NCBI GenBank assembly: GCA_023247195.1 | Contig: JAHFGY010000004.1 | Location: forward strand, 1 to 50,003 | Reading direction: 5' to 3' | Origin: Candidatus Omnitrophota bacterium | GTDB lineage: Bacteria; Omnitrophota; Gorgyraeia; Aquiviventales; Aquiviventaceae | DNA: 50,003 bases | Shown: positions 23,935-45,550 of the stretch, piece after piece | Layout of the letters: each line of letters opens with the position of its first letter | Numbering within the stretch: position 1 is the stretch's first letter | Notes under the pieces: model-generated | The model's input: the letters and a program-made list of their open reading frames with translations, nothing else | The model's database searches: none | Told to the model about the DNA's origin: nothing | Program-made: the position numbers and the translations under genes

Positions 23935-24091
23935 CTTGATTGAGGCGCGCGCTCGGCGAAAAACGGCGGAACGGCGGGCACAACGGGGTATCTTACGCTT
24001 TCACTCTGGGAGCGTCAAGGCAAGTGGAAGTGGAAACGGTTTTTGCGAGCAGAAAAAATGCAGAAACGCCCTAAAAAACCCTTACAGGTGC

Positions 24092-24298: not shown

Positions 24299-24335
24299 TT
24301 CTTTCCCTCCCATCCCTTAAAAGTGTTCTATCGGG

Positions 24336-24364
24336 AGTATATATAACGCATGGAAGAATTACAA
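24336..24364 (-). promoter_or_regulatory. Sigma70-like promoter for the small HTH gene
   Basis: The minus strand reads TTGTAA (24364..24359), a 17-nt spacer, then TATACT (24341..24336), inside the only strongly AT-rich intergenic tract of this region. Confidence 0.45.
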
Positions 24365-24368
24365 GGCT

Positions 24369-24388
24369 TTTACTAATTATTTAGTAAA
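24369..24388. promoter_or_regulatory. Perfect 8-bp inverted repeat (candidate operator)
   Basis: TTTACTAA-ttat-TTAGTAAA, immediately upstream of the -35 element of the HTH gene promoter. Confidence 0.4.
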
Positions 24389-24440
24389 GTAGGAGAAGCT
24401 CAAAAATGGATAAGTTTAGATGGGGTTTAGTGCTTGAACT

Positions 24441-30207: not shown

Positions 30208-31139
30208 AGCTGCTCCGCCACGGCGCGGATCAAGAGCGGTATCAAGATTTCGTGATGCCCGGTGATATGGATCCCGCGGCCACCCAAAAGCGTCGGGCGC
30301 TTGAGAACGTTCTCATGCGGGCGGTAATGCCGGATCATGTCGAAATCGAATGCGGTGAAGTCCTTGACGCTGCTGCCGAGGTTGCGCGCAATGGACACGG
30401 CTTTTAGGAACACCTCCGGCAGAATCACGGCCGAGCCCAGGTTTCCCACCACGCCGCCCTGCCCCAACTGCGAAACCACGCCGATCAAGGTGCGGAAGTC
30501 GTGCAGCGATGTTTGGCCGATGGCCGCGCCGTCCGCGGAAGATTGCTGGTGGATGATGTCCGTGCCGATCGCAACGTGCACGGTCGCGGGAACGTCCATT
30601 TCCACGCAAGTCGCAAGCAGGCTCAAGCGACGATACGGAAGCTTTTTCTTGATGATCATGTGCCCCACGCTGCGGCCAAGCCCCCAGCCTTTTTTCGCGC
30701 CGTCGCGGATCGCAGCATTAAGCGTGGCGTGCGTTTCTTCTGCCATACCGAAAGAGCCGTCGGCGAGCGCAGACGCCACATCCTCGGAGGTGCTTCCCAT
30801 GAACGCGAGCTCGAAATCATGGATAACGCCCGCGCCGTTGAGCGCGATGCCGGTCACGATCTTGCGCTTAATGAGGTCGGTGAGGAGGGGGCTGAGGCCT
30901 ACCTTAATAACGTGCGCGCCGAACATGAAAAGGACCGGCTTTTTCTGCTTATGCGCGGCCGCGATGGCTTCGACGATGTACCGCAAGTCTTTTGCGGCAA
31001 GGATATTCGGCAGGGATTCGTAGAATTCGCGGAAGGTTCCACCCTTACGGCAAGGCCTTGCAAAGCTATCAAAACTGACCTTGCTCTTCCTGGAAGCGAC
31101 CGGGTAGGTCTTGAGTTTTGCCAGGTCGGGCGTAGGCAC
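30204..31139 (-). CDS. Conserved hypothetical protein, tentatively deoxyhypusine-synthase-like (DHS-like NAD-binding fold)
   Basis: 311 aa. FMFGAHVIKVGLSPLLTDLIKRKIVTGIALNGAGVIHDFELAFMG and ...VPATVHVAIGTDIIHQ resemble, in spacing and pattern, the DHS family core (..ltsnlissGlr..i..li....vd.ivttaGa.eeDl...). This assignment is from memory only. The only available start is the GTG at 31139. There is a 4-nt overlap with hldA. Confidence 0.4.
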   Translation of the reverse strand: MPTPDLAKLKTYPVASRKSKVSFDSFARPCRKGGTFREFYESLPNILAAKDLRYIVEAIAAAHKQKKPVLFMFGAHVIKVGLSPLLTDLIKRKIVTGIALNGAGVIHDFELAFMGSTSEDVASALADGSFGMAEETHATLNAAIRDGAKKGWGLGRSVGHMIIKKKLPYRRLSLLATCVEMDVPATVHVAIGTDIIHQQSSADGAAIGQTSLHDFRTLIGVVSQLGQGGVVGNLGSAVILPEVFLKAVSIARNLGSSVKDFTAFDFDMIRHYRPHENVLKRPTLLGGRGIHITGHHEILIPLLIRAVAEQL

Positions 31140-31144
31140 GGCAA

Positions 31145-31173
31145 ATTCTAGCAGAGGCTTCCAGGAGTGTCAA
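31145..31173 (-). promoter_or_regulatory. Near-consensus sigma70 promoter positioned for a leaderless transcript of the DHS-like/heptose/Kdo operon
   Basis: The minus strand reads TTGACA (31173..31168), a 17-nt spacer, TAGAAT (31150..31145), then TTGCC and the GTG start codon (31139). Confidence 0.45.
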
Positions 31174-31229
31174 TTACACACTCGACGTGCCTGAAAGCGC
31201 TCCCTCCGCCTGACTTATATGGTATATTT

Positions 31230-31235
31230 TATAAT
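31230..31235 (+). promoter_or_regulatory. Candidate -10 box (TATAAT) for the giant-gene leader
   Basis: A perfect TATAAT lies in the AT-rich tract 31211..31247. I found no convincing -35 at 16-18 nt (the nearest TGACTT-like hexamer is too close). Confidence 0.3.
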
Positions 31236-31247
31236 CAATATGTAAGT

Positions 31248-31391
31248 ACCGCCAAAGGCAAACCTGCGGTAACGCAGGGACGTCCCGCAAGCTTTGCTTC
31301 GCAAAGCGGGCTCGCGGGACCCCGCACGAAACTTCGCGCGGTGAAGTCGCGGGGCAAAGCTTCGGATCCCTTCTATTCTATAGGGACTGCC
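31248..31391 (+). ncRNA. Structured 5' leader / candidate riboswitch (GEMM-I-like 5' half)
   Basis: AAAGGCAAACC (31254..31264) is followed by the hairpin CCUGCG-GUAA-CGCAGG (31263..31278) and then GACG. A long hairpin follows: GUCCCGC(31282-88)/GCGGGAC(31314-20), enclosing GCUUUGC-uuc-GCAAAGC (31291..31307). A further hairpin is CCCCGC(31320-25)/GCGGGG(31349-54), enclosing ACUUC/GAAGU. The CGCAAAGC octamer is at 31300..31307 and a second GCAAAGC at 31354..31360. Confidence 0.45.
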
Positions 31392-31419
31392 AGGCTGCCG
31401 AAAAACCGGCAGCCTTTTT
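31392..31419 (+). terminator. Intrinsic terminator-like hairpin 8 nt upstream of the giant-gene ATG (candidate attenuator / expression platform)
   Basis: AGGCUGCCG-aaaaac-CGGCAGCCU (a 9-bp GC-rich stem) followed by UUUU. The U-run is present only on the plus strand. No plus-strand gene lies upstream that it could terminate. Confidence 0.6.
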
Positions 31420-31427
31420 CCTATAAG

Positions 31428-31541
31428 ATGCTAACGACCTATCGAAGAACAGAATTCAGAAAATTTCTCAGCGTTGTCTTAGCGGGCGTCGTTGCGCTTT
31501 CCAACACGCCGCTTCTCCTCGCTGCGCCTTCATCCAGCAGC
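31428..31541 (+). other. Predicted N-terminal signal peptide or membrane anchor of the giant protein
   Basis: A basic n-region (RRTEFRK), a ~22-aa hydrophobic core (FLSVVLAGVVALSNTPLLLAA), then a Ser/Pro-rich stretch. Confidence 0.55.
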
Positions 31542-34500
31542 AGTCTGCTTGCGCCCAGTCCAGCCAGCCAACTGCCGGGCCTTGAGGTCGCTTCCCTGCT
31601 CGATGAATTAGACACCGCCTACGGTTTCCCGCAATACCAACTCACCAGCGATATCACGAGCAAGAAAACGACGCTGGCATTGCAATTCGATGCTAAAGGC
31701 CTTGCGGCTTTTCAGCAAAACTCCCGAGAGTCTACCGGCGCCCACCTAGGTCTGACCGCCCTTGTACTAGGCTTGGCGCGACAGTATGCCTGGCAGAATC
31801 ACGCGTTTGACGAAGTTATTCGGACGTACGCGCAGGATCGGCAAATGACCGCAGCGGAGACGCAACAACTGCTGGCGAACGAAGACATCCTGAGGCTTGT
31901 GCTCACACCCAATGCGTATCTGGAAATCCTCCAACAGGCTGTGGTGGATTCGGGTTTGTTTCAATGCATAGTAGCCGCTCCAGACGACACTCCACATGAC
32001 CAACTCACCGCTCTCCGTCGGACCCTCGCCGACGATCTGCGCGCTTTTTTTCCCGGCGCGACGGTGTCCGATAACTGGTATCGATTCGCCCCATCGCCGA
32101 ACAGGTCAACGGAAAATGAGCCGGCGATGCGATGGTCCGGTCGAGGACTCTCTCCCAAACAGCATGAGATCGTTGATACCGTCATTGGCGACTATTTTTC
32201 AGGCGAGCAGCCCGGCCCCCTAGCCACAGAGCTTGATCAACAATCTTACGAATACAGCTACCTGGATCCGGACGGAATACTTGCAGATGCCGGCGTGCGT
32301 ATTTTATTTCTTGAAGGCCTTCTGGAGCGCATCCGTGAGGCTTGCGAGGCGGAGGGAGAAGAATTTCCTGAAGACCTGGCCATTCACCCGGCCCGCCAAC
32401 ACCGGACGCTGCTGCTGGACCCGACTCAGCATGAAGCCATTGCAAGACAGCCTATTGAATGGCGCGGCCGGCTGGCCCGTCATGAGCTGGCGCACATTGA
32501 GCATCCGGAGCTGACCGAAGAGCAAATTCAAGCGGTAGCGGAATGGGCAATCGGAGAAACCGATCCCAATGCATCGATGAGCGCGGTGGAAATAAGCCGG
32601 TCAGAGGACTTTGCCGCCGCGATGCGGGGCGTACCGGGAGGCAGCTATTCAAATAGTCAGCTGGCGGCTGCAGCCGGAATCGCTCGAGGAACTTATTCGC
32701 GGGTGCTTGCTTCGGAAAAAATCCGCCGCATTCATCAGGAAAACGAGCGCCGCAAGCGCGAGCAAACCGGGCTCGCTCCAATTATTCTCATCGACGTAAG
32801 CAATGAAGAGCTCCGAGAACAAACGCTGCGGGCGATCGACGAGCACGTGTCCGATATTCCGCCCGGGGATCACTTTCTGACAGACCTAAGCTCGTACCTT
32901 CATATCACCGCCATGACGATACATAAGCACGAGGCTTATATTCTCGCAAAAATCGCGGAATTGAACGCGCAGAAGAAATTACGGGACGAGCCCACGATAA
33001 ACATTATTTCACGGGGCGTGGTATGGAGAGTTCAACAAGCGCTCCCTACGACGAAAGGTGGCTCCTACTATTGGACGCAGCTTGCTGATCTTTGGGGCAT
33101 CGGCTGGGTAAGCCTCCAGAACCATTTGAAAGAAATTGAAGATTTGCTGGCCGTTGAAAATGAGCGGCGGAAGGAGGATCCGAAGGCAGTTCCCATTGAA
33201 ATTTTAAAGGCACCTGCCGCGGGCAGCGTATTGCAGAGTTTTGCAGAGGGATTACCGAACGTGGATCCTGGGATTTACTCGTTGGGGCGGTTGGCCGAAT
33301 TGGCGGGCTCTAGCTACGAGGTGATTTACCAATATCGAGATGAAGCCGCCGAACTTGTTTCCGCCGAGAATATTCGCCGAAGCGGACTTGTCACCCCCAT
33401 ACGCCCTATTGAAATCCGAGAGCTCGGCGATATCTTGCCTCGTATCGCGGCAGCGCTTCCCGGCATCGCACCGGGTTCCTACAGCCTGACCGCCTTCGCA
33501 CAAGCGGTAGGCGTGAGCCAAACATCGATCACGACCAACCTCACCGAAGTACAGAATTTGCTCGCTGCCCACAATCACGCTCGATCCAGTGCGGCAATAT
33601 TCCTGGAATCTCCCGTGATTTTTGAGCGGCTTTTGCACGATTATGCACCGGCCTTGCAGGAAGGCTTGCTTAATGAGGATTGGCTGCGGCGAGCGTTCTC
33701 TGCCGGCCCTGCCGGCGTATCCGAGCTGCTGAGCGAGCTCACGGACAGCGGCACGGCGTCCTTATGCCGAGTGCTGGTTCTCGTTGAATTGTACCCCTTC
33801 CTATTTGAGCGGCTATACGTGGACATGGATGACACCCTCTTCACCTCTCCGCTATTCGTCGGCAGCGAAGCATGGATACGGAGCGAATACGCCCTGCATG
33901 GGCGGCCAATCAGCCATCTGAAGAATGAAAAACGGCGAATCGAAGGATGGTTGATCCACTCCGGCGTTCCGTTTCAGGCCGTTGAGCCTCTTGTGCCGGA
34001 AAAACTCCTGCAAATCCAGCAGCGCTACCCGCACATTCAGATCATTGGCCTGACGGCGCGGGGCCAAGAAGACAGGTCAAATACGGAGTCGATTCTCAAG
34101 CAATTGGGACTGAGCATCGAGATTTTATACGGCGGGTCAAGCTACGGCAAGCGCCAGCAATGGAATCAAGCACGTACGGCGGCCGGAAGGCTGCAGACAA
34201 GCGGCACCGCAAATGCGCAACCCGAATCAGAGTCAGACGAAACCGACTCCGACGAAGACCAAAGCGCGGCGCAACCGGAAGACACTACCAGCGGCCAAAA
34301 CGAGCAGGCGCGCCGATGGTGGGTGCTCCTCGATGACGGCCTGGACAGGCTGGCGAAAAAACCTCAGCGAGAGAGCTGGCTTGATGAGCAGATCGCTGCG
34401 GTGGGATACGCCCCTCCCATTCGTTATGACTGGAGCGCCTCTCGAGACCACATGCTTCAAGACCTCGAATCGGGCGACCTCATCTCCAGTTGGCGCTGGG

Positions 34501-37500
34501 CCATGGACGCTCTGGCGCTCCTCAAATATGAACCGGATACCCGCAGGCGCCTGGAAACGCTCGCTCAAATTCAGGCGCTGGTCGTTGAACCGGCCTTTGC
34601 CAGAATGCAGGCCGAGCAACCCCACCCCGATGAGGTCGAAGGCATCGACCGCTTGCTCGTTGGTTATGTCGAAGCGGTAACCGCGCTGCTCGCGCAAGGG
34701 CCCGCCGAGTTGGCTGAAACAGTCGGCATCGATTGGACGGAATATGTCGCCTATAGCGCCTTTCTTATCCTGATGCCGAATAACGCGGAAGATTTCACGA
34801 ACGCCTACATGAACGGGCTTCTTCCAATCCGCGAAGTTAGCCGCCAGAGCCGCGGGCTTCCGGAAGCAAACTACTTTATTGAGATGACGCCAGAGAACAT
34901 TTTCCTCTTCATGGAACCGCTGATCCGCTACCTGCGGACGGAGAAGCCGAGCCTCGTGGTACTCCCGGACACCGGCGCCCGCCCTTTTTTCGACCTGCTC
35001 AATAAGGTGATTGAAGCTGAGGGGCTCCCGACAAAATTGCTGATTTTTCCGATAAGCCGGAACACGGCCAGCGACACTCTCTATGAGCTCAAGCTTTGGA
35101 TGACCAGCCAGCAAACCCGCTTCACAAGATTATTCCAAGGCATCGATCCTTCGGGTGTGGCCGGAAAGGATGTCGTGATCTTGGATGACAACATTACTTC
35201 AGGCGAGACGATTCTCATGCTCCAAACGCTTCTTAAGGACGTGTGGGGTGCAGGGACGATCGTAGGACTCACGCCGTTTGCGTACAGGCGAGGTTACCCC
35301 TTCCCGTTTATCGCCACATGCGTCTTGCCGGCTCAAGGTTTTGCATGGAGGCGCCAAAACCCGCCCGTCGTGGTGATCACACCCTGGGAGAATTCCCCCA
35401 CGTTGCGCGGTGCGGCCAGCCGCTCGCGATTTGAACGGCCGCCCGTCAAGCTAATACAAAGCCCGAAAAACCAAGCCGCGGCCATTGAGCGTTTGCAACA
35501 ATTTATGGGGGCGTACGGGGCCTCGAATAGGGATTTGACACTGACGCTCAAAGAGACGGCGGAAGAGCCTTTCCCCTTTATGGAAATCGCTGGCTCTTCT
35601 CAGAGCGCGGAGCCGTCTCCGTCGGAAGCGGAAAGATCGGAATCGATCGTGGCTATCCCTATCTCCAACTCCGTGGAACTTCGTGAGCTTGGACGCCGGC
35701 TCCCCGGATGGGTTCGCACGGAGTATGCGCTCACAAAGGAAGAGTTGCCGCATGCCACGGAACCCGGAACCATGCTCTACGAGATCTGGGACAAACAAAC
35801 GGATGAGCCGCTCGGATTGTGCATTCTCCTATGGGTCTGGGATGAGAATAATAACCGCAATATCCTGATCCGGAAAATTCAGCCCCGGATAGATGCCGAT
35901 GATCGAGTGGATCCGGTCCAGCTCATCGAAGGCATCCGCAACTGGCTAGAGACCGAACCCATCGACCTGCACGCGCTCCTGATCGATGCGAACAGCATCA
36001 CAATGACCCGGGTCTCGGAGTCGCACCGGGTCCGGGCGCTGATCAATGACGCCTATGCCTCGCATCCCAGGGTGCGCGACCAATTGACAACCCAGGGCTA
36101 TGCGCATCCGTGGATAGGCCAAGCCAATGTTGTTTTCATAAAACGGCTCACGCCAGAAGAAAGAGCGCGGATAGCCGAAGGAAGGGCGCTGCTTGAAAAT
36201 ATCAGCCAATCGCGCTTGAACCGCATTCTTCACCCTGATTTGCTGTCGCAATTCAATGATGCGTCCATCCTTTTGAATAGCGGGCTTCCTCCCAGCGAGG
36301 AGGACCTTGCCCTTCTGCGCGTCTTGCAAAGGCATGACGCGCTGTTGCGATACGCGGCTTCCGCAGAAGCCAAGCGTAATCCTGAACAACTGGAACGATA
36401 CGGCACACGCATTCTTTATGACTCGCTTGTCGAGGCTTCAGAGCTTTCCGGCGAGCGCTTGAGCTTTCCGGAAGGCTTTTTTGAAGGGGATTACGGGCGG
36501 GTTCGAGCGGAGGAAGCATTCCTGTACTACATCCAAAATATTTGGGAGGACGGGTACCACCTCGGCCAATTGCGAACCGCGGATTTGCGCCAATACGGGC
36601 TGGGTCCCGCCCTACGGCTCCATTTCAATAATGACCGCGGAGCTCTGATCGAGTTTCTCTGCCCGGGAGGTTACGTCCAATCCGGAAAAAACCGGTACCG
36701 CCCAAATCCTGAACAAGAGGTGACATCCAGGATGTGGGCGCACTTCATGGCGGGCGAATGGTGGACGATCGCTCCCGGAGCGCGGTATACGCTCAAGGCA
36801 AATGACAAAGCGGGCGATCGCTATCGAGGCCTGGTAGCTTCATTCGAGGTGAACGCGAATCATGGGCCGATCGCGATCCTGCGGGATGTGGCCGGCGTTG
36901 AACACGCTATAGCGCATCAAGTTGACCAAAGTCACGTGGCTTCCACCTCGGTTCGTCTTGCGAAATATCGGCTATTCAAACGAAAATCCACCGCGGGACC
37001 GCTATTAGCCGCACTCAATATCCACCGTTGGCTGGCGGGCCACCACATCCAGGTTTCCGCGGAAATGCAGCCCGTCACAATGCCCTCTCAGCAGGTGAAC
37101 CAACTCATGAGGTGGCGATCCGTCAAGGGCGTCAATAAACTCTATAATCCCGCCGTTAGTCTGGTGCCCGAGCAAGATCCAGCCTTGGGAACGGTTTTGA
37201 GAATTTATGCGCCTCAGCCCGGTAAGGAACTTGCCGAAGCAGACTTGGTCGGTATCTGTTTCCGCGACTCGAATGGAGTGATCATCTATGAAACCCTCGC
37301 GGAACAACTGGGGGCGGTTGATATCGACGCCTGGATTCGCGGGCTACCTGTCACTCCCCTGGCGCGCAGCGGCAATTTCTTTCGACTGAGCCAAACCGGT
37401 CAACTACTCGCTCAGCTTCCGGGGAATCGGAAAAGCCGTCCGGTTTCCGTGGATAGCAGCTATGCCAATCAAATCGTTTTTGCCCGCCTTGAAAATCATG

Positions 37501-40500
37501 CGGCCTACGGAACCCTTTTAGCCGTCTATCCTGTTGATCCAACAACGGGGATAGTGCAGAGCAACCAAAGGATCCGTGCCTACGCCTGGGTTGAGGATGA
37601 GCTGCGGGCATTGGCCGGAGGGATTGTTCCATACGAAGAACAGTTTCCTACCCCCTCACCGGAGTTCTCATCGGATGAGGCTCAGTCAAAAGAAGGGGAT
37701 CACCCCGATGAAGCAGTCTCGCTTCCTGAGCCGCGGGAGGGAGACGCGGTCCGCGCAGAGCGAGGAGGTGTTTGGAGAAACACGACTATTCTTCGCATTG
37801 TCCCGGGGAAGTATATATTTGTTTCATGGAGAAATGTCGAACTCGGCATACCGTGGGAGAAAATTCAAACCCATCTTCAAAGAGCGGACGGAAGCCCGCT
37901 TATGCAATCTGAGGAAAGCAGTCCCGAGACGGATTCGGCCGCATCGGCTCCTCCGGAAGAAACACTGCTCCTTTCCCAGGTTGCTTTTAGCGATTCATCC
38001 ACCGGAGAAAAAATCGTATCTCTCCTTGCTGATAAGGACATCCGGACAGTCGCGGATCTTCTCGCCCGCGGGGCCGATCCGTTTATTGCCGTTGATGATG
38101 GCTATGCTCTTAACCGGGATGATTGGCAGGAATTGGACCTCGCCCTGGGCTTGCTCGGCGCTCCGATCCTTATGGATCCCGCAGCCACGGCCGATTCAGA
38201 TTCAACCGAGTCTCTTCCCATCCAGGGGCCCCTGCGCAAGTCGCGCGTGATTTACGGACTTTGGAGGCTGCATATTCTCAGCCTGTCCGAACTGGCACAC
38301 CGATTCGATAGGGCGCGCCCTGCCCTGGCCGCATCCCTCAGCCCCGATGAACTGCTCCGCGTTGAAGATTGGCTAACAGAACAAGGCTACGCAATCGTCT
38401 CTGAGCCAGTTGAACCGGCATATCTGCCAAGCCACCAGACATTCTCCACAAGCCGGATCAGAAGAATGATTCAAGCCATTCTGCCTGATTTTCCAGGCGG
38501 CGAATTCACTTACAAGGAATTCTCGGAATTGACGGGGATTGATCCCGCAACGATCAGCACTAACCGCGTCCTTATCGACCAATTGGTCGCCGCAGAAAAT
38601 GCGATCCGTGAGCGAGCCAGCCGGCAAACCATCCGCTTGGGAGAAGATATCCTGCAAAAGATTGAGGGTTTATTGCCTGAGACCCCCGGAGGGGAATATA
38701 CGCTGAAGGACTTGGGCGGGCTGTGGGGGCTATCGCCCCCGACGCTGGCGAAATACAGAGAAGAAATAGACTTGCTGGTGGAACAAGAGAACAACGACCC
38801 CGGAAGAGAAAGCCCCGAGGATGAGATCCAACTCTATGAGCCAGACCCTCTTGTCCGTATTGCGGCGGCATTCAAAGAAGTCCGGGGAGGAACGTACTCG
38901 GCCGAAAAACTGGCAAGAGCCCTTCATACCGCCTTACCAACCTTCAACAAATATGAGGCTGAAATTCTGGCTTTACTCGAGAAAGAGAATGAGTCGCTGA
39001 AGACCCAGGGAAAGCCACAAATTGAATATCGCCCCCGAGCTGTTCTCAAAAGAATCCGGGCTGACTTGCCGAACCTGCCCGGGGGCAACTACTCCATCAA
39101 GAGCTTCTCGGAGGCCATGGTGATAACAAGATCGAGCGTGCCAAAATTTGAGCCTGAAATCCAAGCGATGATCATAGAAGTGAACGCCTTGCGAAAAGAA
39201 CAACAGCGCACAGACTTTATCCACTTATCGGCGCAACCCGCGGTGAATACGTCAGAAATTCTATTCGACGAAATTATACAGAGAATTTCTACAATTCCCG
39301 CCGGCGAATATACCTGGTCAGGTCTTGCTAGGGAATTGAAGGCGGGCAAGGGCTATGTTATTGGAAAACAGAAAAAACTGACGACTGTTATAGCTGCTGA
39401 TAATGTTGCCCGCGAGAAACGCAACGAGGGCCCTATCGTGATAATCGCTCCTGATCGCATGGAGGACCTTGCGGCACGATTACCAAAGGTGCAGGGTAAG
39501 GTATACCAAATGAAGGATTTCGCGGAAGCGGTGGGCATTTCTCAAAGCGTGCTCAATAGGCACAGCACCGAAGTCGATGCGCTCCTGCTCACTGACAACA
39601 TCCGGCGTAAAGCAGCAAACGAGCCGGAAATCGCCCTCTGGGAGCAGGATTCTTTTTTGAAAATCGAGCAGCTAATCCCCTCCCTTGCGGGCGGCTGGTA
39701 CTCATTTGATGATCTAGCGGAACTCGTCCATGCGCATCGAAAAACGCTTGCCAGTTATGCGGATGAGATTGAACGTCTCATGGGTGCCGAGAATCTGAAG
39801 CGTCGCCAAGCCGGGCGCAAGGATTTTATTTTCTTGTTACGAAAACCTGTTTTACCGCGTGTGAGGCAAGTTCTTCCTTGGCTGGACGGAGGGACTTATT
39901 CGTGGGAAGACCTGGCGGCCGCCACAGGGCTGGAAGCCAAGACTCTTTCATATAATTACCGCGACGCAGTCTTGGAGATCATTGCGGCTGAGAATCTGAA
40001 CCGGTCACCGGATAATCAGATCATTTTGCTATCGAAGCAATCTCCTTCTTCCCAAGCGCTCGCGGGACGATTCGACGGAGCCGACCTACGCCAGGCGGAG
40101 CCGATCGAAGACGCTGAAACAACCCAGCTTATCGATGCGGCCGGCGTTATTTCAGAGAACTTCAAAGACGTGCTTGGCGGGGTCGAAGCCGAGCTCCCGG
40201 CGCTCCAGCAGCAGACGGATCAGCAAGAGGAGCCTCTCTCCGGAAAGAAAAAGCTGACGTTTAAGCTCGTGGCTTTCCGGAATGCGGCAGGCGAGATTGA
40301 GGCCCGCGGACCTTACATCCAGCGCACCGGTTCGGTGATCTACTTGAACGCCGGGCGCGCTGACCTGAGCGTAGAAAACAAGCGGAGAGCGCTGAAGCAC
40401 GACATCATCGGTCATGACTGGCAGCTCTTAATGGATACTTTGGGCTACGCATCTCCGGAGAAAATTCCGCATGCCATTGCCGAGGCGTTCGGCCTCTATA

Positions 40501-41366
40501 TGGGCGAGTTTTCGGATATATCTGATACCGAGGAGCGCATTGAACTCGTGCTAGCCATTCTGGAGCAGAGGCTGGGGATGGTTATCCCTGTGAATGGAGA
40601 ACCGGCGTCAATGACAGCCGCTCCTTCTCAGGCTGACTTCTGTCCCTCGCTGCTGCATTCGAGAAACCCCACCCGCGCCCTGCCCCGCCATGAAATTGCG
40701 GATGCGCTTCGGAAGCTGCCCGATATCCAGACTTTGTACATTGAACATGCCAACCCGATTACAGCGACGAGCATCCGGAACAAACTTTTGAACACTGGCT
40801 TAACGCATATCCGGCAGCTGGAAGAGCTGACACCGGAAGAACTCAATGCCCTACTGGGTCGCAGGGCGGATGAAGCTGCAGTGATGGCTATTGAAGCGGC
40901 TCTGCAAAGGCTCGGCAAATCACTCAGCGCCTTCGACTCTATCGACACGTTGAAAATTCCCGGGACCTCGGACCGTCAGCGCACGCGTCTGCTAATCATT
41001 CTCAAATCAAATGGCATCCTGACGATTCCCAAGCTGCTGGAAACGCCCGACGCCAAATTGGAAGGTATTCTTGCGGGGGCTTCAATGATCGGTGAAACAC
41101 CGATTAACTATCTGATGCTGCGGATCCGAGAGCTTAGGGATGCCACCCCGATGAAACCTTCATCCACGCAAGCGGCGATGATTCATGTGGGTGTGAACGC
41201 GACCGGGATACCTTCCTTCAGCGCTGAAGGGCAGTCGGAACTGGATCAACTGCTTGCGCAGATGTGCAGCAGCTTGAACAACACCATGGAAAATCCGACA
41301 GAAGACCTGGAACTGCTGATCAAGAACTGGCAAAGGCAGCGCGAAGAAATCGAATCAAGCGGCTAG
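31428..41366 (+). CDS. Giant (~3,312 aa) mosaic protein of unknown function with signal peptide/anchor, HExxH motif, 13 HTH-like repeats, HAD-like, PRTase-like and alphaCTD-like HhH modules
   Basis: An uninterrupted ORF is open from 31167. I chose the ATG at 31428 because it is followed directly by a signal-peptide-like sequence (MLTTYRRTEFRKFLSVVLAGVVALSNTPLLLAAPSSSS). The region upstream contains promoter elements and RNA hairpins. No Shine-Dalgarno is evident, so the start is uncertain. The stop TAG is at 41364..41366. Confidence 0.85.
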   Translation: MLTTYRRTEFRKFLSVVLAGVVALSNTPLLLAAPSSSSSLLAPSPASQLPGLEVASLLDELDTAYGFPQYQLTSDITSKKTTLALQFDAKGLAAFQQNSRESTGAHLGLTALVLGLARQYAWQNHAFDEVIRTYAQDRQMTAAETQQLLANEDILRLVLTPNAYLEILQQAVVDSGLFQCIVAAPDDTPHDQLTALRRTLADDLRAFFPGATVSDNWYRFAPSPNRSTENEPAMRWSGRGLSPKQHEIVDTVIGDYFSGEQPGPLATELDQQSYEYSYLDPDGILADAGVRILFLEGLLERIREACEAEGEEFPEDLAIHPARQHRTLLLDPTQHEAIARQPIEWRGRLARHELAHIEHPELTEEQIQAVAEWAIGETDPNASMSAVEISRSEDFAAAMRGVPGGSYSNSQLAAAAGIARGTYSRVLASEKIRRIHQENERRKREQTGLAPIILIDVSNEELREQTLRAIDEHVSDIPPGDHFLTDLSSYLHITAMTIHKHEAYILAKIAELNAQKKLRDEPTINIISRGVVWRVQQALPTTKGGSYYWTQLADLWGIGWVSLQNHLKEIEDLLAVENERRKEDPKAVPIEILKAPAAGSVLQSFAEGLPNVDPGIYSLGRLAELAGSSYEVIYQYRDEAAELVSAENIRRSGLVTPIRPIEIRELGDILPRIAAALPGIAPGSYSLTAFAQAVGVSQTSITTNLTEVQNLLAAHNHARSSAAIFLESPVIFERLLHDYAPALQEGLLNEDWLRRAFSAGPAGVSELLSELTDSGTASLCRVLVLVELYPFLFERLYVDMDDTLFTSPLFVGSEAWIRSEYALHGRPISHLKNEKRRIEGWLIHSGVPFQAVEPLVPEKLLQIQQRYPHIQIIGLTARGQEDRSNTESILKQLGLSIEILYGGSSYGKRQQWNQARTAAGRLQTSGTANAQPESESDETDSDEDQSAAQPEDTTSGQNEQARRWWVLLDDGLDRLAKKPQRESWLDEQIAAVGYAPPIRYDWSASRDHMLQDLESGDLISSWRWAMDALALLKYEPDTRRRLETLAQIQALVVEPAFARMQAEQPHPDEVEGIDRLLVGYVEAVTALLAQGPAELAETVGIDWTEYVAYSAFLILMPNNAEDFTNAYMNGLLPIREVSRQSRGLPEANYFIEMTPENIFLFMEPLIRYLRTEKPSLVVLPDTGARPFFDLLNKVIEAEGLPTKLLIFPISRNTASDTLYELKLWMTSQQTRFTRLFQGIDPSGVAGKDVVILDDNITSGETILMLQTLLKDVWGAGTIVGLTPFAYRRGYPFPFIATCVLPAQGFAWRRQNPPVVVITPWENSPTLRGAASRSRFERPPVKLIQSPKNQAAAIERLQQFMGAYGASNRDLTLTLKETAEEPFPFMEIAGSSQSAEPSPSEAERSESIVAIPISNSVELRELGRRLPGWVRTEYALTKEELPHATEPGTMLYEIWDKQTDEPLGLCILLWVWDENNNRNILIRKIQPRIDADDRVDPVQLIEGIRNWLETEPIDLHALLIDANSITMTRVSESHRVRALINDAYASHPRVRDQLTTQGYAHPWIGQANVVFIKRLTPEERARIAEGRALLENISQSRLNRILHPDLLSQFNDASILLNSGLPPSEEDLALLRVLQRHDALLRYAASAEAKRNPEQLERYGTRILYDSLVEASELSGERLSFPEGFFEGDYGRVRAEEAFLYYIQNIWEDGYHLGQLRTADLRQYGLGPALRLHFNNDRGALIEFLCPGGYVQSGKNRYRPNPEQEVTSRMWAHFMAGEWWTIAPGARYTLKANDKAGDRYRGLVASFEVNANHGPIAILRDVAGVEHAIAHQVDQSHVASTSVRLAKYRLFKRKSTAGPLLAALNIHRWLAGHHIQVSAEMQPVTMPSQQVNQLMRWRSVKGVNKLYNPAVSLVPEQDPALGTVLRIYAPQPGKELAEADLVGICFRDSNGVIIYETLAEQLGAVDIDAWIRGLPVTPLARSGNFFRLSQTGQLLAQLPGNRKSRPVSVDSSYANQIVFARLENHAAYGTLLAVYPVDPTTGIVQSNQRIRAYAWVEDELRALAGGIVPYEEQFPTPSPEFSSDEAQSKEGDHPDEAVSLPEPREGDAVRAERGGVWRNTTILRIVPGKYIFVSWRNVELGIPWEKIQTHLQRADGSPLMQSEESSPETDSAASAPPEETLLLSQVAFSDSSTGEKIVSLLADKDIRTVADLLARGADPFIAVDDGYALNRDDWQELDLALGLLGAPILMDPAATADSDSTESLPIQGPLRKSRVIYGLWRLHILSLSELAHRFDRARPALAASLSPDELLRVEDWLTEQGYAIVSEPVEPAYLPSHQTFSTSRIRRMIQAILPDFPGGEFTYKEFSELTGIDPATISTNRVLIDQLVAAENAIRERASRQTIRLGEDILQKIEGLLPETPGGEYTLKDLGGLWGLSPPTLAKYREEIDLLVEQENNDPGRESPEDEIQLYEPDPLVRIAAAFKEVRGGTYSAEKLARALHTALPTFNKYEAEILALLEKENESLKTQGKPQIEYRPRAVLKRIRADLPNLPGGNYSIKSFSEAMVITRSSVPKFEPEIQAMIIEVNALRKEQQRTDFIHLSAQPAVNTSEILFDEIIQRISTIPAGEYTWSGLARELKAGKGYVIGKQKKLTTVIAADNVAREKRNEGPIVIIAPDRMEDLAARLPKVQGKVYQMKDFAEAVGISQSVLNRHSTEVDALLLTDNIRRKAANEPEIALWEQDSFLKIEQLIPSLAGGWYSFDDLAELVHAHRKTLASYADEIERLMGAENLKRRQAGRKDFIFLLRKPVLPRVRQVLPWLDGGTYSWEDLAAATGLEAKTLSYNYRDAVLEIIAAENLNRSPDNQIILLSKQSPSSQALAGRFDGADLRQAEPIEDAETTQLIDAAGVISENFKDVLGGVEAELPALQQQTDQQEEPLSGKKKLTFKLVAFRNAAGEIEARGPYIQRTGSVIYLNAGRADLSVENKRRALKHDIIGHDWQLLMDTLGYASPEKIPHAIAEAFGLYMGEFSDISDTEERIELVLAILEQRLGMVIPVNGEPASMTAAPSQADFCPSLLHSRNPTRALPRHEIADALRKLPDIQTLYIEHANPITATSIRNKLLNTGLTHIRQLEELTPEELNALLGRRADEAAVMAIEAALQRLGKSLSAFDSIDTLKIPGTSDRQRTRLLIILKSNGILTIPKLLETPDAKLEGILAGASMIGETPINYLMLRIRELRDATPMKPSSTQAAMIHVGVNATGIPSFSAEGQSELDQLLAQMCSSLNNTMENPTEDLELLIKNWQRQREEIESSG
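32481..32495 (+). other. HExxH motif (HELAH) within the giant protein
   Basis: The context is WRGRLARHELAHIEHPELTEEQ (ORF aa 439-443). This is a bare motif with no recognised surrounding peptidase fold. Confidence 0.3.
32610..33611 (+). repeat. Array 1: five tandem ~65-aa HTH-like protein repeats (R1-R5)
   Basis: The units contain GVPGGSYSNSQLAAAAGIARGTYSRVL..IHQENERRK; IPPGDHFLTDLSSYLHITAMTIHKHEAYILAKIAELNAQKK; TKGGSYYWTQLADLWGIGWVSLQNHLKEIEDLLAVENERRK; VDPGIYSLGRLAELAGSSYEVIYQYRDEAAELVSAENIRR; and IAPGSYSLTAFAQAVGVSQTSITTNLTEVQNLLAAHNHAR. Confidence 0.8.
33804..34361 (+). other. HAD-superfamily-like module in the giant protein
   Basis: Motif I is YVDMDDTLF (DxDxT, aa 886-890). Motif II is IIGLTARG. 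A Lys is present in YGKRQ. Motif IV-like is WWVLLDDGLD. An acidic Ser/Asp/Glu linker (ESESDETDSDEDQ) is inserted before motif IV. Confidence 0.55.
34950..35291 (+). other. Type-I phosphoribosyltransferase-like module in the giant protein
   Basis: A canonical PRPP-binding loop, GKDVVILDDNITSGETILML (aa 1333-1352, nt 35172..35210 for VVILDDNITSGET), is preceded by LVVLPDTGARPFFDLL (PPi-loop-like). Confidence 0.6.
37983..38402 (+). other. Two RpoA-alphaCTD-like helix-hairpin-helix modules (central)
   Basis: STGEKIVSLLADKDIRTVADLLARG...DDWQELDLALGLLG and SRVIYGLWRLHILSLSELAHRF...LSPDELLRVEDWLTEQGY follow the pattern x-R-x-x-N-x-L-x-x-x-x-I-x-T-hxxL...eL..h...G..s..ei...L...Gh. Confidence 0.4.
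38451..40037 (+). repeat. Array 2: eight tandem ~65-aa HTH-like protein repeats (R6-R13)
   Basis: For example LPDFPGGEFTYKEFSELTGIDPATISTNRVLIDQLVAAENAIRE; LPETPGGEYTLKDLGGLWGLSPPTLAKYREEIDLLVEQEN; EVRGGTYSAEKLARALHTALPTFNKYEAEILALLEKENE; LPNLPGGNYSIKSFSEAMVITRSSVPKFEPEIQAMIIEVNALRK; IPAGEYTWSGLARELKAGKGYVIGKQKKLTTVIAADNVAREKR; VQGKVYQMKDFAEAVGISQSVLNRHSTEVDALLLTDNIRRK; LAGGWYSFDDLAELVHAHRKTLASYADEIERLMGAENLKRR; and LDGGTYSWEDLAAATGLEAKTLSYNYRDAVLEIIAAENLNR. Confidence 0.85.
40674..41141 (+). other. Two RpoA-alphaCTD-like helix-hairpin-helix modules (C-terminal)
   Basis: ITATSIRNKLLNTGLTHIRQLEELTPEELNALLGRRADEAAVMAIEAALQRLGKSL closely parallels the alphaCTD pattern (..svRsaNcLk.agI.tigdLv.kteeeLl.i.nfGkkSl.EIkekL.elGlsL). 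A second copy is LKIPGTSDRQRTRLLIILKSNGILTIPKLLETPDAKLEGILAG. Confidence 0.55.
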
Positions 41367-42440
41367 CGCCGCCAGCGCCGCAGAATGCACTTCCTCAACG
41401 GAAAGCTCGGTCAGGCACTTAAAGGCGATGTCGCAGTTGTGCGCCAGGCAGACCTCGCAGCCCACCTCTTTATGCAGGATCACATGCCCCTGCCCCACCG
41501 GACCCCAGCGCTTGGGCGATAGCCCGGCTTGGTTTCGGCCGAAGATAACCACTACTTTTGTTCCGACCGCGGCGGCCAAGTGAACCGGGCCGGAATCATT
41601 TGAGATCAAGAGCTTGGCGCGCGCAAGAACCGCGATGAGTTCGGCGATCGAAAGCTGTCCGGCCAGGTTGACCGACGGCGAGCGCATAGCGCGGGCAACC
41701 GCGTCCGCGTGCGGCTTATCTTCCTTCCCCGCCACGAGAACAATGCGCAGCCCTGGTGCCGCCAGCTTGTCGGCGACCGCGGCGAAGCGCTCAGGCATCC
41801 ATCGTTTCGACACGCAGCTGGCGGACGGGTGCACCGCGACGAAGGTGGCCCCTGCCGGCACACCCGCGGCTTGCAAGCGCTGCGTGACGCGCGCGGCCGC
41901 TTCCGGCTGAACAGCGACGAAAGGCTCCGGCGGCCCCGGCTGCACGCCGAAAACGCGCAGCATTTCCACCGCGTATTCGGACTCGTGCTTCTGGCCTTCC
42001 TGCTTGGTGTGCGGCACGCGGTGCGTCAAAAGCCACGGTTGCTTGCGGTCGTAACCGACGCGGCGCCGAATACCGGCCAGGAATGGGATCCAATGCGCGC
42101 GGTTGCTCGGGTGCAGCACAAGCGCGGTGTCGAAACGGTGAGGCCGCAGGCTCCGCGCGAACGCGACCGTTGCCAGCGGCGAGCGGTGCTTCCCTTCCTT
42201 GTCGTAAGCAAGAACCGCGTTTACGTCCGGGTTCCCGGTGACGACATCGCGGCACGCTTCGCGCACGAGCACGCCGATATAAGACTGCGGCCACGCGCGG
42301 CGCGCGGCGCGCAGCACCGCGGTGGAAAGCGCCACGTCGCCGATGCGGTCGAGCCGCACGACGAGCAAGCGTCGTGGCGCGTCGAGCACCTGTCTGGGCG
42401 GCTCAAGCGGTTTGGCGGATAGACTGTCCGGGCTTTCCAT
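41355..42440 (-). CDS. Glycosyltransferase family 9 (ADP-heptose:LPS heptosyltransferase-like)
   Basis: LLVVRLDRIGDVALSTAVLRAARRAWP N-terminus and C-terminal LLISNDSGPVHLAAAVGTKVVVIFG ... C.xC ... motifs typical of GT9. The 3' end overlaps the giant ORF by 12 nt. A GTG at 42389 is an alternative start. Confidence 0.85.
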   Translation of the reverse strand: MESPDSLSAKPLEPPRQVLDAPRRLLVVRLDRIGDVALSTAVLRAARRAWPQSYIGVLVREACRDVVTGNPDVNAVLAYDKEGKHRSPLATVAFARSLRPHRFDTALVLHPSNRAHWIPFLAGIRRRVGYDRKQPWLLTHRVPHTKQEGQKHESEYAVEMLRVFGVQPGPPEPFVAVQPEAAARVTQRLQAAGVPAGATFVAVHPSASCVSKRWMPERFAAVADKLAAPGLRIVLVAGKEDKPHADAVARAMRSPSVNLAGQLSIAELIAVLARAKLLISNDSGPVHLAAAVGTKVVVIFGRNQAGLSPKRWGPVGQGHVILHKEVGCEVCLAHNCDIAFKCLTELSVEEVHSAALAALAA

Positions 42441-44441: not shown

Positions 44442-45550
44442 TTCCGGCGGCCCAACGCTTCCGCGTACACGCGCTCCAGCTTATCGGCCATGCCGTCGAG
44501 CGCGTACCGGCCGCGAACAACCGCCAATCCTTGCGCGGCCATCGCCGCGGCTCCCGCCGGATCATGCAGGATCGACGCGATCGCAGCGGCCAAGCCTTCC
44601 GGATCCTGCGCCTTCACTTGCGTACCCACTCCGCTTTCATCGAGCAGCCACGTGGAGCCGCCGCCACGCCGGATCGCCACAACCGGCCGCGCGGCGGCCA
44701 TGGCTTCGAGCAGCACAAGGCCGAACCCTTCTTTGTCCGCGGGCAAAAACACAAAGACGTCCATTGCCGCGAGCGCTTCGCGCGTCACATTCACCGACGG
44801 CACGAAGTGGATGCGGTCTTTTTGAAGAAGCGTTGCCGCCAGCGCTAGAAGGCGCTCGCGGTCTTCTCCTTCTCCGACGATCAGCAACTGCACGCCCGGG
44901 ACCGCTTTAAGCAGGTGCTGCCACGCATTCAATAATTGATCAATGGCGCGCGCACGGATCAGACGCGTGACGGTGCCCACGACCTGTCCTTGGGTCGAAA
45001 GACCGAAATCGCTGCGCAGCCGGTCTCTTTCCGCTTGCCCGCCGGGCGCAAACAGCCCCGCGTCGATGCCATGCGGCACCAAGCGGATCCGGTTTTCCGG
45101 AACATGAAAGTCTTGCTTCAAGTGCTCGGCCACCGGCGGGCTGATCGCAATGCTCAAGTCGCCCGAGCAGGGCCAGAACCGCCTGCCCAGGTTCGGTCGG
45201 AAAAAGCCGTGCCAGGTTGCCACATAGGGAACGCGAAGTTTCTTGGACAGCCGCGCGGCCACGACCTGCGACGTGCGCGTGTGCGCATGGAGGACATCGA
45301 ACGGCTCTTTACGCAGCCGATCGGCGAGCTGGCGCGTGGCCGCGAACACGCCGAGGCTGAATTCAGCGCTGGTTCCCAAGGCAAATGGCCAGTAAGCGCA
45401 GTTCGCGGCGGAGAGCTCTGCTTGCAGCGGGCCCGGTGCCGCAGCCACGGCAACCGTGTGGCCGCGTCGCTGCAGGCAAGCCGCGGTCGTCACGACCGAG
45501 CGCGCAACCCCGCCGACGCGCAAGTGAGACGTTAAGTGGAGGATGCGCAT
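44438..45550 (-). CDS. Glycosyltransferase family 4 (GT-B, RfaG-like)
   Basis: MRILHLTSHLRVGGVARSV N-terminus and the E-x7-E region FLPADKEGFGLVLLEAMAAARPVVA. Confidence 0.85.
   Translation of the reverse strand: MRILHLTSHLRVGGVARSVVTTAACLQRRGHTVAVAAAPGPLQAELSAANCAYWPFALGTSAEFSLGVFAATRQLADRLRKEPFDVLHAHTRTSQVVAARLSKKLRVPYVATWHGFFRPNLGRRFWPCSGDLSIAISPPVAEHLKQDFHVPENRIRLVPHGIDAGLFAPGGQAERDRLRSDFGLSTQGQVVGTVTRLIRARAIDQLLNAWQHLLKAVPGVQLLIVGEGEDRERLLALAATLLQKDRIHFVPSVNVTREALAAMDVFVFLPADKEGFGLVLLEAMAAARPVVAIRRGGGSTWLLDESGVGTQVKAQDPEGLAAAIASILHDPAGAAAMAAQGLAVVRGRYALDGMADKLERVYAEALGRRK

Follow-up and report, generated by a model that had tools for sequence, protein, structure and literature searches.

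Dual-domain ribofuranosyltransferases carry an N-terminal PRP domain, which is of the HAD type, and a C-terminal gPRT domain (PMC11294581). The gPRT moves ribose-5-phosphate from phosphoribosyl pyrophosphate (PRPP) to a glycan, and the N-terminal PRP removes the 5-phosphate (PMC11294581, PMC11231755). The named systems are the CrpP-CriT pair of Bcs3 from H. influenzae b, the T. composti prototype (PDB 7SHG), Klebsiella O4 ORF5 and Salmonella STM0726, and in Bcs3, the multi-enzyme polymerase of the Hib capsule, the order is CrpP, CriT, SH3b (PMC10299916). Here we describe a gene for a 3,312-aa mosaic protein (hereafter the giant), situated among lipopolysaccharide (LPS) genes in a 50,003-nucleotide stretch of DNA from a Candidatus Omnitrophota bacterium (contig JAHFGY010000004.1, positions 1 to 50,003, referred to as the window), in which a HAD phosphatase domain is likewise followed by a phosphoribosyltransferase (PRTase) fold. 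We posit, at a probability of roughly 0.4, that the giant is a Sec-targeted, envelope-linked multi-enzyme protein whose core would carry out PRPP-type phosphoribosyl transfer and then dephosphorylation, as in the PRP-gPRT ribofuranosyltransferases.

Two further groups of described proteins resemble the giant. In a recent preprint, long proteins of Omnitrophota are described as signal- or transmembrane-bearing 'multi-enzyme' mosaics with HAD, GNAT and methyltransferase domains (bioRxiv 10.64898/2026.06.07.730766). The very long Omnitrophota proteins of two preprints (West-Roberts et al. 2023, bioRxiv 10.1101/2023.11.21.568195; Nielsen & Lui 2026) share with the giant and its relatives an N-terminal signal or transmembrane segment, a patchwork of cytoplasmic-type enzymes (HAD, GNAT, methyltransferase, HATPase), old and diverged internal repeats without DNA-level tandems, a mostly unique sequence and, where relatives are labelled, an Omnitrophota origin. 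However, the very long proteins are catalogued at >=10,000 aa and are flanked by type II secretion system/pilus and glycoside-hydrolase genes, whereas the giant, at 3.3 thousand aa, lies in an LPS cluster with no secretion genes nearby, and its DUF2608-PRTase-GNAT-like cassette is not named in the part of the catalogue paper that was available. The original prediction had presented the giant as an undescribed class of giant exported protein. Its mosaic, signal-bearing nature stood, but the novelty of the class did not, as the giant belongs to a family of 17 clusters and its general kind has already been described in Omnitrophota.

The second group comprises the polyvalent proteins (Iyer, Burroughs, Anand, de Souza, Aravind 2017; PMC5512222), which, like the giant with its at least eight module types, combine many unrelated enzymatic and DNA-binding domains with embedded HExxH zincin-like modules (a putative assignment in the giant). 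Further likenesses are a PRTase in which an Arg after strand 2 is conserved, partners of the SNF2 helicase and methylase kinds (found in relatives of the giant) and fast turnover. In contrast, the giant is chromosomally encoded in a core biosynthetic cluster without phage or conjugation genes nearby, bears a Sec signal, lacks a Pfam MPTase-PolyVal or LPD match and is without relatives in IMG/VR, GenBank phages and PLSDB plasmids. As it is not carried by a mobile element, the giant is not a polyvalent protein as defined.

The giant gene and its HAD-phosphoribosyltransferase cassette

The gene is genuine and encodes a Sec-signal-bearing mosaic protein of a rare family. The longest plus-strand open reading frame (ORF), 31167..41366, comprises 3,399 codons counted from a GTG, and a start at the ATG at 31428 gives 3,312 aa. 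We consider this ATG the better start because it places a hydrophobic, signal-like segment at residues 12-34 and because the closest homologue, P0003, aligns from its own N-terminal signal peptide (P and L numbers are our handles for proteins and loci, respectively). From base composition, the chance of a stop-free run of 3,399 codons is ~1e-59. The GC contents of the three codon positions (GC1/GC2/GC3 of 0.625/0.431/0.606; 0.554 for the gene overall) follow a pattern typical for coding sequence, and an identical protein (P0001, 100%) was found in an ENA metagenome assembly. These results, the lack of any internal stop and a colinear homologue at the same site bear out the prediction of a real, uninterrupted 10-kb ORF. 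As also predicted, it is the only plus-strand gene in the 50 kb, with all other annotated genes on the minus strand. The gene had been judged by eye to be AT-richer than its flanks, and the computed values agree: sliding GC, GC3 and codon usage all differ from the flanks, with GC per kb at 0.51-0.586 within the gene versus 0.61-0.67 outside, GC3 at 0.606 versus 0.70-0.84 in genuine neighbours, and a codon usage that is the worst fit of all genes to the flank model. A giant gene AT-richer than its surroundings was found in every genome checked (the window, L003, L004, L005 and L007).

The coding sequence and its cassette are laid out as follows, with the basis of each assignment in parentheses:

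31428..41366, plus strand: coding sequence, with its stop codon, of the 3,312-aa mosaic (ORF, codon-position GC, 100% identity to P0001)
33795..34427, plus strand: DUF2608-type phosphatase of the HAD superfamily that has a helical cap and an acidic insert of low complexity, aa 790-1000 (Pfam, A2 motifs, AF2, BFVD)
34428..34817, plus strand: helical bundle joining the HAD domain to the PRTase domain, aa 1001-1130 (A2 positions 263-389 helical in AF2; family-conserved)
34818..35417, plus strand: type-I PRTase fold, aa 1131-1330 (Foldseek, PRPP loop, relatives' Pfam matches)
35652..36140, plus strand: GNAT-like alpha/beta domain, aa 1409-1571 (AF2 topology, fold matches)
36153..36659, plus strand: helical domain, aa 1576-1744 (family-conserved, AF2)
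36660..37667, plus strand: beta-rich region with about three degenerate 'NHG...W.E / GWLD..W..G' copies, aa 1745-2080 (phmmer versus P0003, P0004, P0005 and P0006)

Within the family these elements form a colinear cassette of HAD phosphatase (DUF2608), helical bundle, type-I PRTase fold, GNAT-like fold, helical domain and beta repeats. The cassette was modelled with AF2 (AlphaFold2) from a nine-row alignment (A2) of aa 740-1900, yielding a predicted local distance difference test score (pLDDT) of 75.7 and well-resolved domains. The HAD-like module, which had been proposed from the sequence, matched DUF2608 (PF11019) on a 420-aa tile with 25.0 bits against a cut-off of 22.6 (aa 798-898); for the whole protein the score was 21.3 bits, just below. 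DUF2608 was matched by 9 of 15 relatives, at best with 3.9e-15. The HAD motifs of the giant are D799-M-D801-D-T803, T876 (GLTAR), a Lys in the YGGSSYGKR region and D969-D970, and D799, D801, T803 and D969-D970 are invariant in A2. Further, the HAD blocks of the AF2 model reached a pLDDT of 83-94, with a helical insert after strand 1, and the viral models of BFVD gave HAD folds at a probability of 0.96-1.0.

The PRTase-like module of the original prediction was likewise recovered, by fold and through relatives. For this domain, a Foldseek search of PDB with the cassette model gave a probability of 1.0 and a TMt of 0.5-0.63 to 1vdm, HGPRTs, PurF and PyrR. The invariant residues in A2 are R1185, in the loop after strand 2, D1253-D1254, G1259 and T1261, and the PRPP loop reads V-V-I-L-D1253-D1254-N-I-T-S-G-E-T. 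In the giant the Pribosyltran family (PF00156) scored 16.6-20.3 bits over aa 1172-1272, under the cut-off of 26.3, and it passed the cut-off in three relatives with the same cassette (32.7 bits). Sequence-level matches were confined to the PRPP loop: the cassette profile matched PDB sequences only on the loop of classical PRTases, and the single-sequence PDB search returned only PRPP-loop matches with E >2.

As for the remainder of the cassette, the secondary-structure order of the AF2 model at aa 1409-1571 equals the GNAT topology. This region has no Pfam match, and its fold matches were M. tuberculosis ICL2 chains (E 7e-4) and viral N-acyltransferases/GNATs (probability 0.9-0.99); we take the ICL2 match to reflect a GNAT-like C-terminal domain of ICL2. 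With the whole cassette, Foldseek against viral models gave HAD hydrolases, PRTases and N-acyltransferases/GNATs at a probability of 0.9-1.0. The 'NHG...W.E / GWLD..W..G' repeat occurs by eye in ~8-10 tandem copies in P0004-P0006, and the AF2 model covers the first copy in the giant only.

The giant thus compares with the PRP-gPRT systems as follows. It has an N-terminal HAD domain, a helical region, a PRPP-type PRTase and then beta-rich modules, at the place of SH3b in Bcs3 (PDB 8A0M), and it has the catalytic Asp motif, the DD PRPP loop and a location in a surface-glycan cluster. In contrast, sequence similarity to these enzymes is not detectable, the HAD domain is of the DUF2608 type, and the giant bears a signal peptide whereas the known enzymes act in the cytoplasm. 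In addition, its HAD-PRTase pair is embedded in a mosaic of 3.3 thousand aa with HTH-like arrays, a zincin-like module and a GNAT-like domain, and its activity is a putative one. By domain order the giant shares the architecture of the PRP-gPRT family and may, weakly, share its fold, but its sequence does not match and its predicted location differs.

A divergent allele and a second placement among LPS genes

The giant gene was found where the original prediction had placed it, between the start, at 31139, of the operon of a GSU2086-family gene, the hldE kinase and kdsB, and the stop, at 41355, of a GT9 heptosyltransferase gene, and its 3' end and that of the convergent GT9 gene overlap by 12 nt. 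Taken more broadly, it sits between three GT9 genes on one side and GSU2086/hldE/kdsB/pyrG/kdsA/kdsD/kdsC/lpxL-lptC/lptB on the other. A syntenic homologue between the same flanking genes, of the kind that the original prediction had proposed to look for, is P0003, which lies at the same chromosomal site on an independent contig (OBEQ010737677.1, L003). By blastn, the left 884 bp of L003 matched window positions 30399-31282 at 92.1% and the right 512 bp matched 41389-41900 at 87.1%; between these matches only three short patches aligned, at 65-76%. No direct or inverted repeats were found at the breakpoints of the segment so delimited:

31283..41388, no strand: variable (replaced) segment between conserved flanks (blastn versus OBEQ010737677.1, L003)

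At the protein level, the flanking genes of the window and L003 are 98.8% (GSU2086 family) and 91.8% (GT9) identical. The giant and P0003, however, share 38-42% identity over aa 28-375 and 666-2279, and the C-terminal third of the giant is without similarity to P0003. By domain, the PRTase is most conserved (57-63%), followed by the HAD domain (53%), the HExxH module described below (46-47%) and the HTH arrays (20-27%). Because the flank proteins are 92-99% identical but the catalytic domains only 53-63%, we favour replacement of 31283-41388 by a divergent allele over divergence in situ, and allelic replacement through recombination in the flanks would be the simplest account of this sequence comparison. 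The foreign or replaced origin that had been argued from composition hence has stronger support than GC can give, namely a ~40%-identical allele between 92-99% identical flank proteins. Two other origins were considered and rejected: site-specific insertion, as there are no repeats at the breakpoints and no integrase or tRNA nearby, and a phage or plasmid origin, as the phage and plasmid collections named above hold no relatives.

O-antigen and other surface-glycan hypervariable loci undergo allelic replacement between conserved flanks and have a GC lower than that of the genome. Similarly, the giant locus shows a sharp loss of homology between 87-92% identical flanks, with divergent, AT-richer cargo at the same site among LPS genes. 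It differs in that a single giant mosaic gene, accompanied in L003 by one accessory gene, forms the cargo in place of a glycosyltransferase/Wzx/Wzy set. Whatever the mechanism, the locus is a clean case of allelic replacement, in which a giant gene in an LPS cluster is radically different between near-identical flanks, and it bears on how surface-related diversity is kept in uncultured bacteria.

A link of the giant to the cell envelope, suggested earlier from position alone, was strengthened by a second relative. P0005 (2,183 aa, 30% identical to the giant, with a signal peptide) also lies inside a 3-deoxy-D-manno-octulosonate (Kdo)/LPS cluster, in a distant genome with a GC of 0.42 and a PyrG that is 64.6% identical. 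Genes of that cluster run in the order GT9 x3, DUF3108, deacetylase, hldE, kdsB, pyrG, kdsA, kdsD, [P0005], lpxL, lptC, lptB, and P0005 is encoded on the same strand as the operon, with 95-160 nt gaps. Since both position and orientation differ from those in the window, we regard this as a second, independent association with the Kdo/LPS cluster.

Two side observations concern the interval that holds P0005. In L005 and L006 (Logan SRR29476933 and SRR29476917) there is no separate kdsC between kdsD and lpxL, where the HAD-bearing P0005 sits. In the window, a local GC dip (0.54) at 24001-25000 coincides with a 73-aa excisionase/MerR-like helix-turn-helix (HTH) ORF at 24092-24313 (minus strand), between kdsC and lpxL-lptC. 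This stretch is the counterpart of the kdsD-lpxL interval holding P0005 in L005, where no kdsC is present, and it may be a second soft spot of the LPS cluster.

Other modules, relatives and possible functions of the giant

Outside the cassette, the giant contains the following regions:

31428..31529, plus strand: N-terminal signal peptide/signal anchor, aa 1-34 (Kyte-Doolittle scan, heuristic call)
31530..32102, plus strand: N-terminal domain of unknown function, aa 35-225 (common only to P0003, phmmer 2e-27)
32103..32555, plus strand: ~150-aa 'MRWSG...HELAH' module, putative minimal zincin-like metallopeptidase, aa 226-376 (alignment A1, AF2)
32592..33611, plus strand: five tandem ~65-aa HTH-like repeats, aa 389-728 (alignment, reciprocal hidden Markov models)
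37848..38420, plus strand: helix-hairpin-helix (HhH)-like segment, aa 2141-2331 (phmmer 4e-5 versus P0003 2380-2578)
38451..40034, plus strand: eight tandem ~65-aa HTH-like repeats, aa 2342-2869 (alignment, reciprocal hidden Markov models)
40200..41147, plus strand: C-terminal region with a DUF5990-like stretch, aa 2925-3000, and two HhH-like segments, aa 3085-3240 (motif level only)

The original prediction had described a signal-peptide- or anchor-like N-terminus, an HExxH motif, 5+8 HTH-like repeats and four alphaCTD-like HhH modules, and all but the last of these held up. The n-region has four basic residues (net charge +3) and is followed by a hydrophobic core at 12-34, the only hydrophobic segment found in the whole protein by Kyte-Doolittle scan; the heuristic prediction supports a Sec-type signal or anchor. 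Signal-like starts are also found in P0003, P0005, P0007, P0008, P0009 and P0011, with a canonical AxA site in P0003. The adjoining domain (aa 35-225) has no Pfam match. The HExxH motif, H352-E-L-A-H356, is real: H352, E353, H356 and E364, as well as an N-terminal MRWSGxGL motif, are invariant in six aligned copies (alignment A1, consisting of the giant and five copies in P0002), and the module also occurs once in P0003 and once on an Omnitrophota metagenome-assembled genome (MAG) contig. It has no Pfam peptidase match. An AF2 model from the six-row alignment (pLDDT 80) gave as best PDB folds the minigluzincins selecase, abylysin and jannalysin, then anthrax lethal factor and BlaR1, all of them weak matches (E 0.3-6, probability <=0.44), and on this modelling the module is a putative zincin-like metallopeptidase. 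A second zincin-like copy near aa 2925-3000 (motif HDIIGH) was rejected, as the hidden Markov model (HMM) of the module gives no support for it, and so was an analogy to ImmA/IrrE-Xre, in which a protease stands beside HTH domains, as there is no Peptidase_M78 match.

The HMM of either block of HTH-like repeats found every repeat of the other at 1e-7 to 1e-16, with that of the eight C-terminal units finding each of the five N-terminal units at 1e-8 to 1e-16. HMMs were needed to see these repeats, since a BLASTP self-comparison of the giant showed no internal repeats, and the repeats are old, given that there is no DNA-level tandem repeat. Their summed score for Pfam HTH_3 is 27.5 bits, and hhalign aligned them weakly with the Xre HTH of P0002, precisely across helix 2-turn-helix 3. 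The alphaCTD-like modules were the weakest of the earlier claims. One stretch, aa 2141-2331, is homologous to a stretch of P0003 that carries RNA_pol_A_CTD at 29.5 bits, but no HhH or alpha-CTD profile of Pfam is significant in the giant itself. In the C-terminal region, DUF5990 scored 18.5 bits, below the cut-off, and IMS_HHH_1 gave E 0.21; the last ~440 aa match no member of the family. As expected from the original prediction, Pfam (whole protein at E <=1, ten tiles at E <=5) and NCBIfam (E <=1) contained no Ig, cadherin, RTX, beta-helix, FHA, nonribosomal peptide synthetase or polyketide synthase match. Overall, Pfam, NCBIfam, PHROGs, PADLOC and a PDB sequence search of the single sequence returned almost no matches, with PHROGs giving only two (E ~0.1) and PADLOC only the PRPP loop of ShosT.

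Relatives were identified by an exhaustive HMMER search of 1.84 billion representative proteins with aa 1140-2339 as the query. This yielded 17 proteins or clusters, all large mosaics of 826 aa (cut by a contig end) to 5,016 aa, and most of the complete ones start signal-peptide-like. A word-indexed protein search with the whole protein returned only the giant itself and P0002 and missed a 39%-identical, 4,069-aa homologue, and with the module alignment or aa 1140-1600 it did not return even the query's own entry; its negatives thus carry no weight. The two taxon-labelled relatives are both from Omnitrophota (P0009, MSR78484.1; and MAG contig JANLHA010000275, L002). Partner domains vary among the relatives and, according to Pfam, include true Xre HTH, SNF2 helicase, Helicase_C, HATPase_c, a CheR-type methyltransferase, FAD_binding_2 and alpha-CTD. 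P0002, P0004, P0009 and P0011 carry, fused at the N-terminus, an unannotated domain of ~480 aa with the motifs QDAH and GGFH, and beside P0003 it is a separate upstream gene of 494 aa (L003 983-2467, plus strand), which has a signal peptide, overlaps the start of P0003 by 4 nt and is absent from the window. Its occurrence as a fusion in some relatives and as a separate gene in L003 points to a functional partnership with the cassette. This domain, which has no Pfam match, is reminiscent of ChaN/TraB/Tiki-type domains. P0002 (2,773 aa; L001 1897-10218) is without the HAD-PRTase cassette; in its central part, a triplet of true Xre HTH domains comes after each of two of its five zincin-like modules, with three more modules downstream, a layout that suggests a self-processing polyprotein.

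How might these parts work together? Under the reading that we prefer, that of a Sec-targeted, envelope-linked multi-enzyme, the HAD and PRTase pair would operate as in the PRP-gPRT enzymes Bcs3 CrpP-CriT, Klebsiella O4 ORF5 and Salmonella STM0726. With a PRPP-like compound as donor, ribose-5-phosphate would be passed on to an acceptor by the PRTase-fold domain, after which the HAD domain would take off the 5-phosphate. We propose this core chemistry because the HAD-then-PRTase order is that of the dual-domain ribofuranosyltransferases. The acceptor would most likely be an envelope glycan, e.g. the LPS core, because of the two LPS-cluster placements. The GNAT-like domain and the beta repeats could have modifying and binding roles, processing of the polyprotein would probably fall to the HExxH module, and the 13 HTH-like repeats and the HhH segments may be arrays that bind a polyanionic ligand, either nucleic acid or glycan. 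The variability of the gene would reflect selection on a surface-related trait. Because of the positive-inside rule, given the +3 n-region before the only hydrophobic segment, export of the bulk of the protein is predicted.

Several results weigh against this reading. The main obstacle is that PRPP and acyl-CoA are cytoplasmic, but the positive-inside rule puts the bulk of the protein outside the cytoplasm. A search of all PDB sequences with the cassette profile (E <=10) returned no gPRT or Bcs3 chain and no 7SHG/STM0726-type homology. At the level of fold, Foldseek with the whole-cassette model found Bcs3 (8a0m_B at a probability of 0.87 and E 3.5e-3 over 782 columns; 8a0c_B at a probability of 0.63), but with a global TM of only 0.12-0.14 for 8a0m_B, and the prototype 7SHG was not among the top 50 fold matches. 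The GNAT-like domain is without the canonical Q/RxxGxG/A CoA loop, and the assignment of the HExxH module to the zincins rests on weak fold matches. Further, the HTH-like arrays, the alpha-CTD of P0003 and the SNF2 helicase, CheR and HATPase domains of relatives are not features of glycan enzymes. Lastly, only two of the seven lineages with readable flanks lie in an LPS cluster; of the other five, three are found amid toxin-antitoxin or defence-type genes, one beside FAD-binding and DUF3800 genes and one beside trpE and unannotated genes.

The toxin-antitoxin neighbourhoods bear on the main rival explanation, which we consider somewhat unlikely, namely that the giant is a delivered 'polyvalent' effector. 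The original prediction had already raised, as speculation, an effector or scaffold that could bind nucleic acid or nucleotides. After Sec export, the giant would be released or transferred by some route and act in the cytoplasm of another cell, where PRPP, acyl-CoA and nucleic acids are at hand. The zincin-like module would cut the polyprotein, the core would make or destroy a nucleotide-like metabolite or ribosylate a target, the HTH/HhH arrays would bind the DNA or RNA of the victim, and the allele turnover would reflect an arms race. Consistent with this explanation, signal peptides recur across the family and the repertoire overlaps that of polyvalent proteins (HExxH zincin-like peptidases with a proposed self-processing role, PRTases that share with ComFC a conserved Arg after strand 2, SNF2 helicases, methylases and HTH; PMC5512222). 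The top BFVD row was a phage 'large polyvalent protein' (probability 0.35), and there was a weak match to the Shosta PRTase toxin. The distant SNF2-type members P0013 and P0012 lie in toxin-antitoxin-rich islands beside other giant ORFs. The labelled relatives belong to a phylum in which predatory or episymbiotic members occur and giant proteins are secreted (bioRxiv 10.1101/2023.11.21.568195), the alternation of five zincin-like modules with Xre HTH triplets in P0002 is polyprotein-like, and in the giant a variable C-terminus follows the better-conserved N-terminal two-thirds. However, no secretion or injection apparatus, immunity gene or mobile-element gene was found within the 50 kb, and the window looks biosynthetically normal and complete (purA, serA, pheA and the methylerythritol phosphate (MEP) pathway). 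Moreover, polyvalent proteins as defined are without signal peptides and are encoded by phages or conjugative elements, the phage and plasmid collections named above hold no relatives, and the two independent Kdo/LPS-cluster placements are left unexplained.

As an observation on these islands, L007 (GCA_040960315.1 JBFOMO010000694.1) and L008 (Ga0209515_10001807) hold SNF2-bearing members amid PIN, Phd, HicB and MazE/ParE genes, and they hold further giant ORFs, including one cut ORF of >4,082 aa with leucine-rich repeats. Elsewhere in the family, a member in L004 lies beside genes for an SMC-like ATPase and a Schlafen/AlbA_2 protein, and P0006 lies beside trpE and unknown genes.

A bolder form of the argument combines both sets of features, and we consider it unlikely. 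In it, the family would be a chromosomal, Sec-exported counterpart of the polyvalent proteins: a swappable multi-enzyme effector of the LPS locus that carries out PRPP-dependent ribosylation of envelope glycans from outside, or of targets in neighbouring or prey cells, with HTH-like arrays binding nucleic acid and self-processing by a new minimal zincin module. If true, this would make the family a previously unrecognised class of inter-cellular conflict or surface-remodelling protein.

We are more doubtful still that the giant is a non-enzymatic, hypervariable structural protein of the surface or periplasm, whose enzyme-like folds would serve for binding or as a scaffold only and which would vary as a phage or predator target, like the giant cell-surface proteins of metagenomic islands. 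The signal peptide, the position in a surface-glycan locus, the allele replacement with a GC lower than that of the flanks, as in O-antigen-type loci, and the long repeat arrays are all consistent with such a protein. Nevertheless, the HAD and PRTase catalytic residues stay invariant even where overall identity falls to 23%, and this speaks for retained chemistry; in addition, Pfam matched no known adhesin or surface-repeat family, and no outer-membrane anchoring or secretion signal was recognised. Finally, a chimeric assembly, a pseudogene or a spurious long ORF is almost certainly not the explanation: although the strand is opposite to that of all other genes, the composition differs, no Shine-Dalgarno is evident by eye just 5' of ATG 31428 and a terminator-like hairpin lies just upstream, the improbably long stop-free run with coding-type codon-position GC, the identical protein from another assembly, the colinear homologue between the same flanks on L003, the 17 relatives with conserved motifs and the confident AF2 models all speak against it.

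The points of interest of the locus are the cassette, the recurrent LPS-cluster linkage and the clean allelic replacement; the function proposed for it is putative. If the envelope-linked chemistry of the preferred reading is true, PRPP-dependent two-step ribofuranosylation would no longer be confined to the cytoplasmic enzymes of capsule and O-antigen synthesis from which it is known to date, but would also be a property of a mosaic with a signal peptide. It would also provide a first functional handle for DUF2608, which no paper retrieved by an open-access full-text search mentions, and the giant would be a tractable example, at 3.3 thousand aa, for why Omnitrophota-type long proteins carry cytoplasmic-type enzymes behind export signals.

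Neighbouring genes and the 5' leader

Upstream of the giant gene we found the following structured element:

31236..31427, plus strand: structured 5' leader whose row of hairpins closes with a terminator-like stem-loop (31392-31415) and a U-run, 12 nt before the ATG (RNA fold)

The leader folds at -88 kcal/mol (z = -5.06 versus shuffles). Rfam at gathering thresholds gave no match anywhere in the window, the leader included. Most of the leader falls in the variable segment, and L003 lacks it; it may act as an attenuator-type leader or represent a REP-like element. Nearby, at 31145-31173 on the minus strand, is a near-consensus sigma-70 promoter (TTGACA-17-TAGAAT with an upstream TG, 11/12 matches), which is directed into the minus-strand GSU2086/hldE/kdsB operon; the conserved divergent intergenic region around it shows 92% identity in L003.

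The minus-strand genes of the window include pheA, scpA, infB, nusA, rimP, proS, ispG, rseP, dxr, cdsA and uppS; an OmpA-like gene, purA, serA, an aminotransferase gene, clpP and tig; lptB, an lpxL-lptC-lptA fusion, pyrG, kdsB, the hldE kinase domain and the GSU2086-family gene; and three GT9 genes, one GT4 gene, a GT4-GT9 fusion and an lpxL fusion. The region at 23.9-26.8 kb holds kdsC, kdsD and kdsA on the minus strand together with the small HTH gene. Three of the LPS genes are unusual fusions, all on the minus strand: 47634-49601 encodes 655 aa with an LpxL domain at the N-terminus and a C-terminal half without assignment, 22111-23934 encodes 607 aa that match LpxL, LptC and, weakly, LptA, and 45532-47637 encodes a 701-aa GT4-GT9 fusion.

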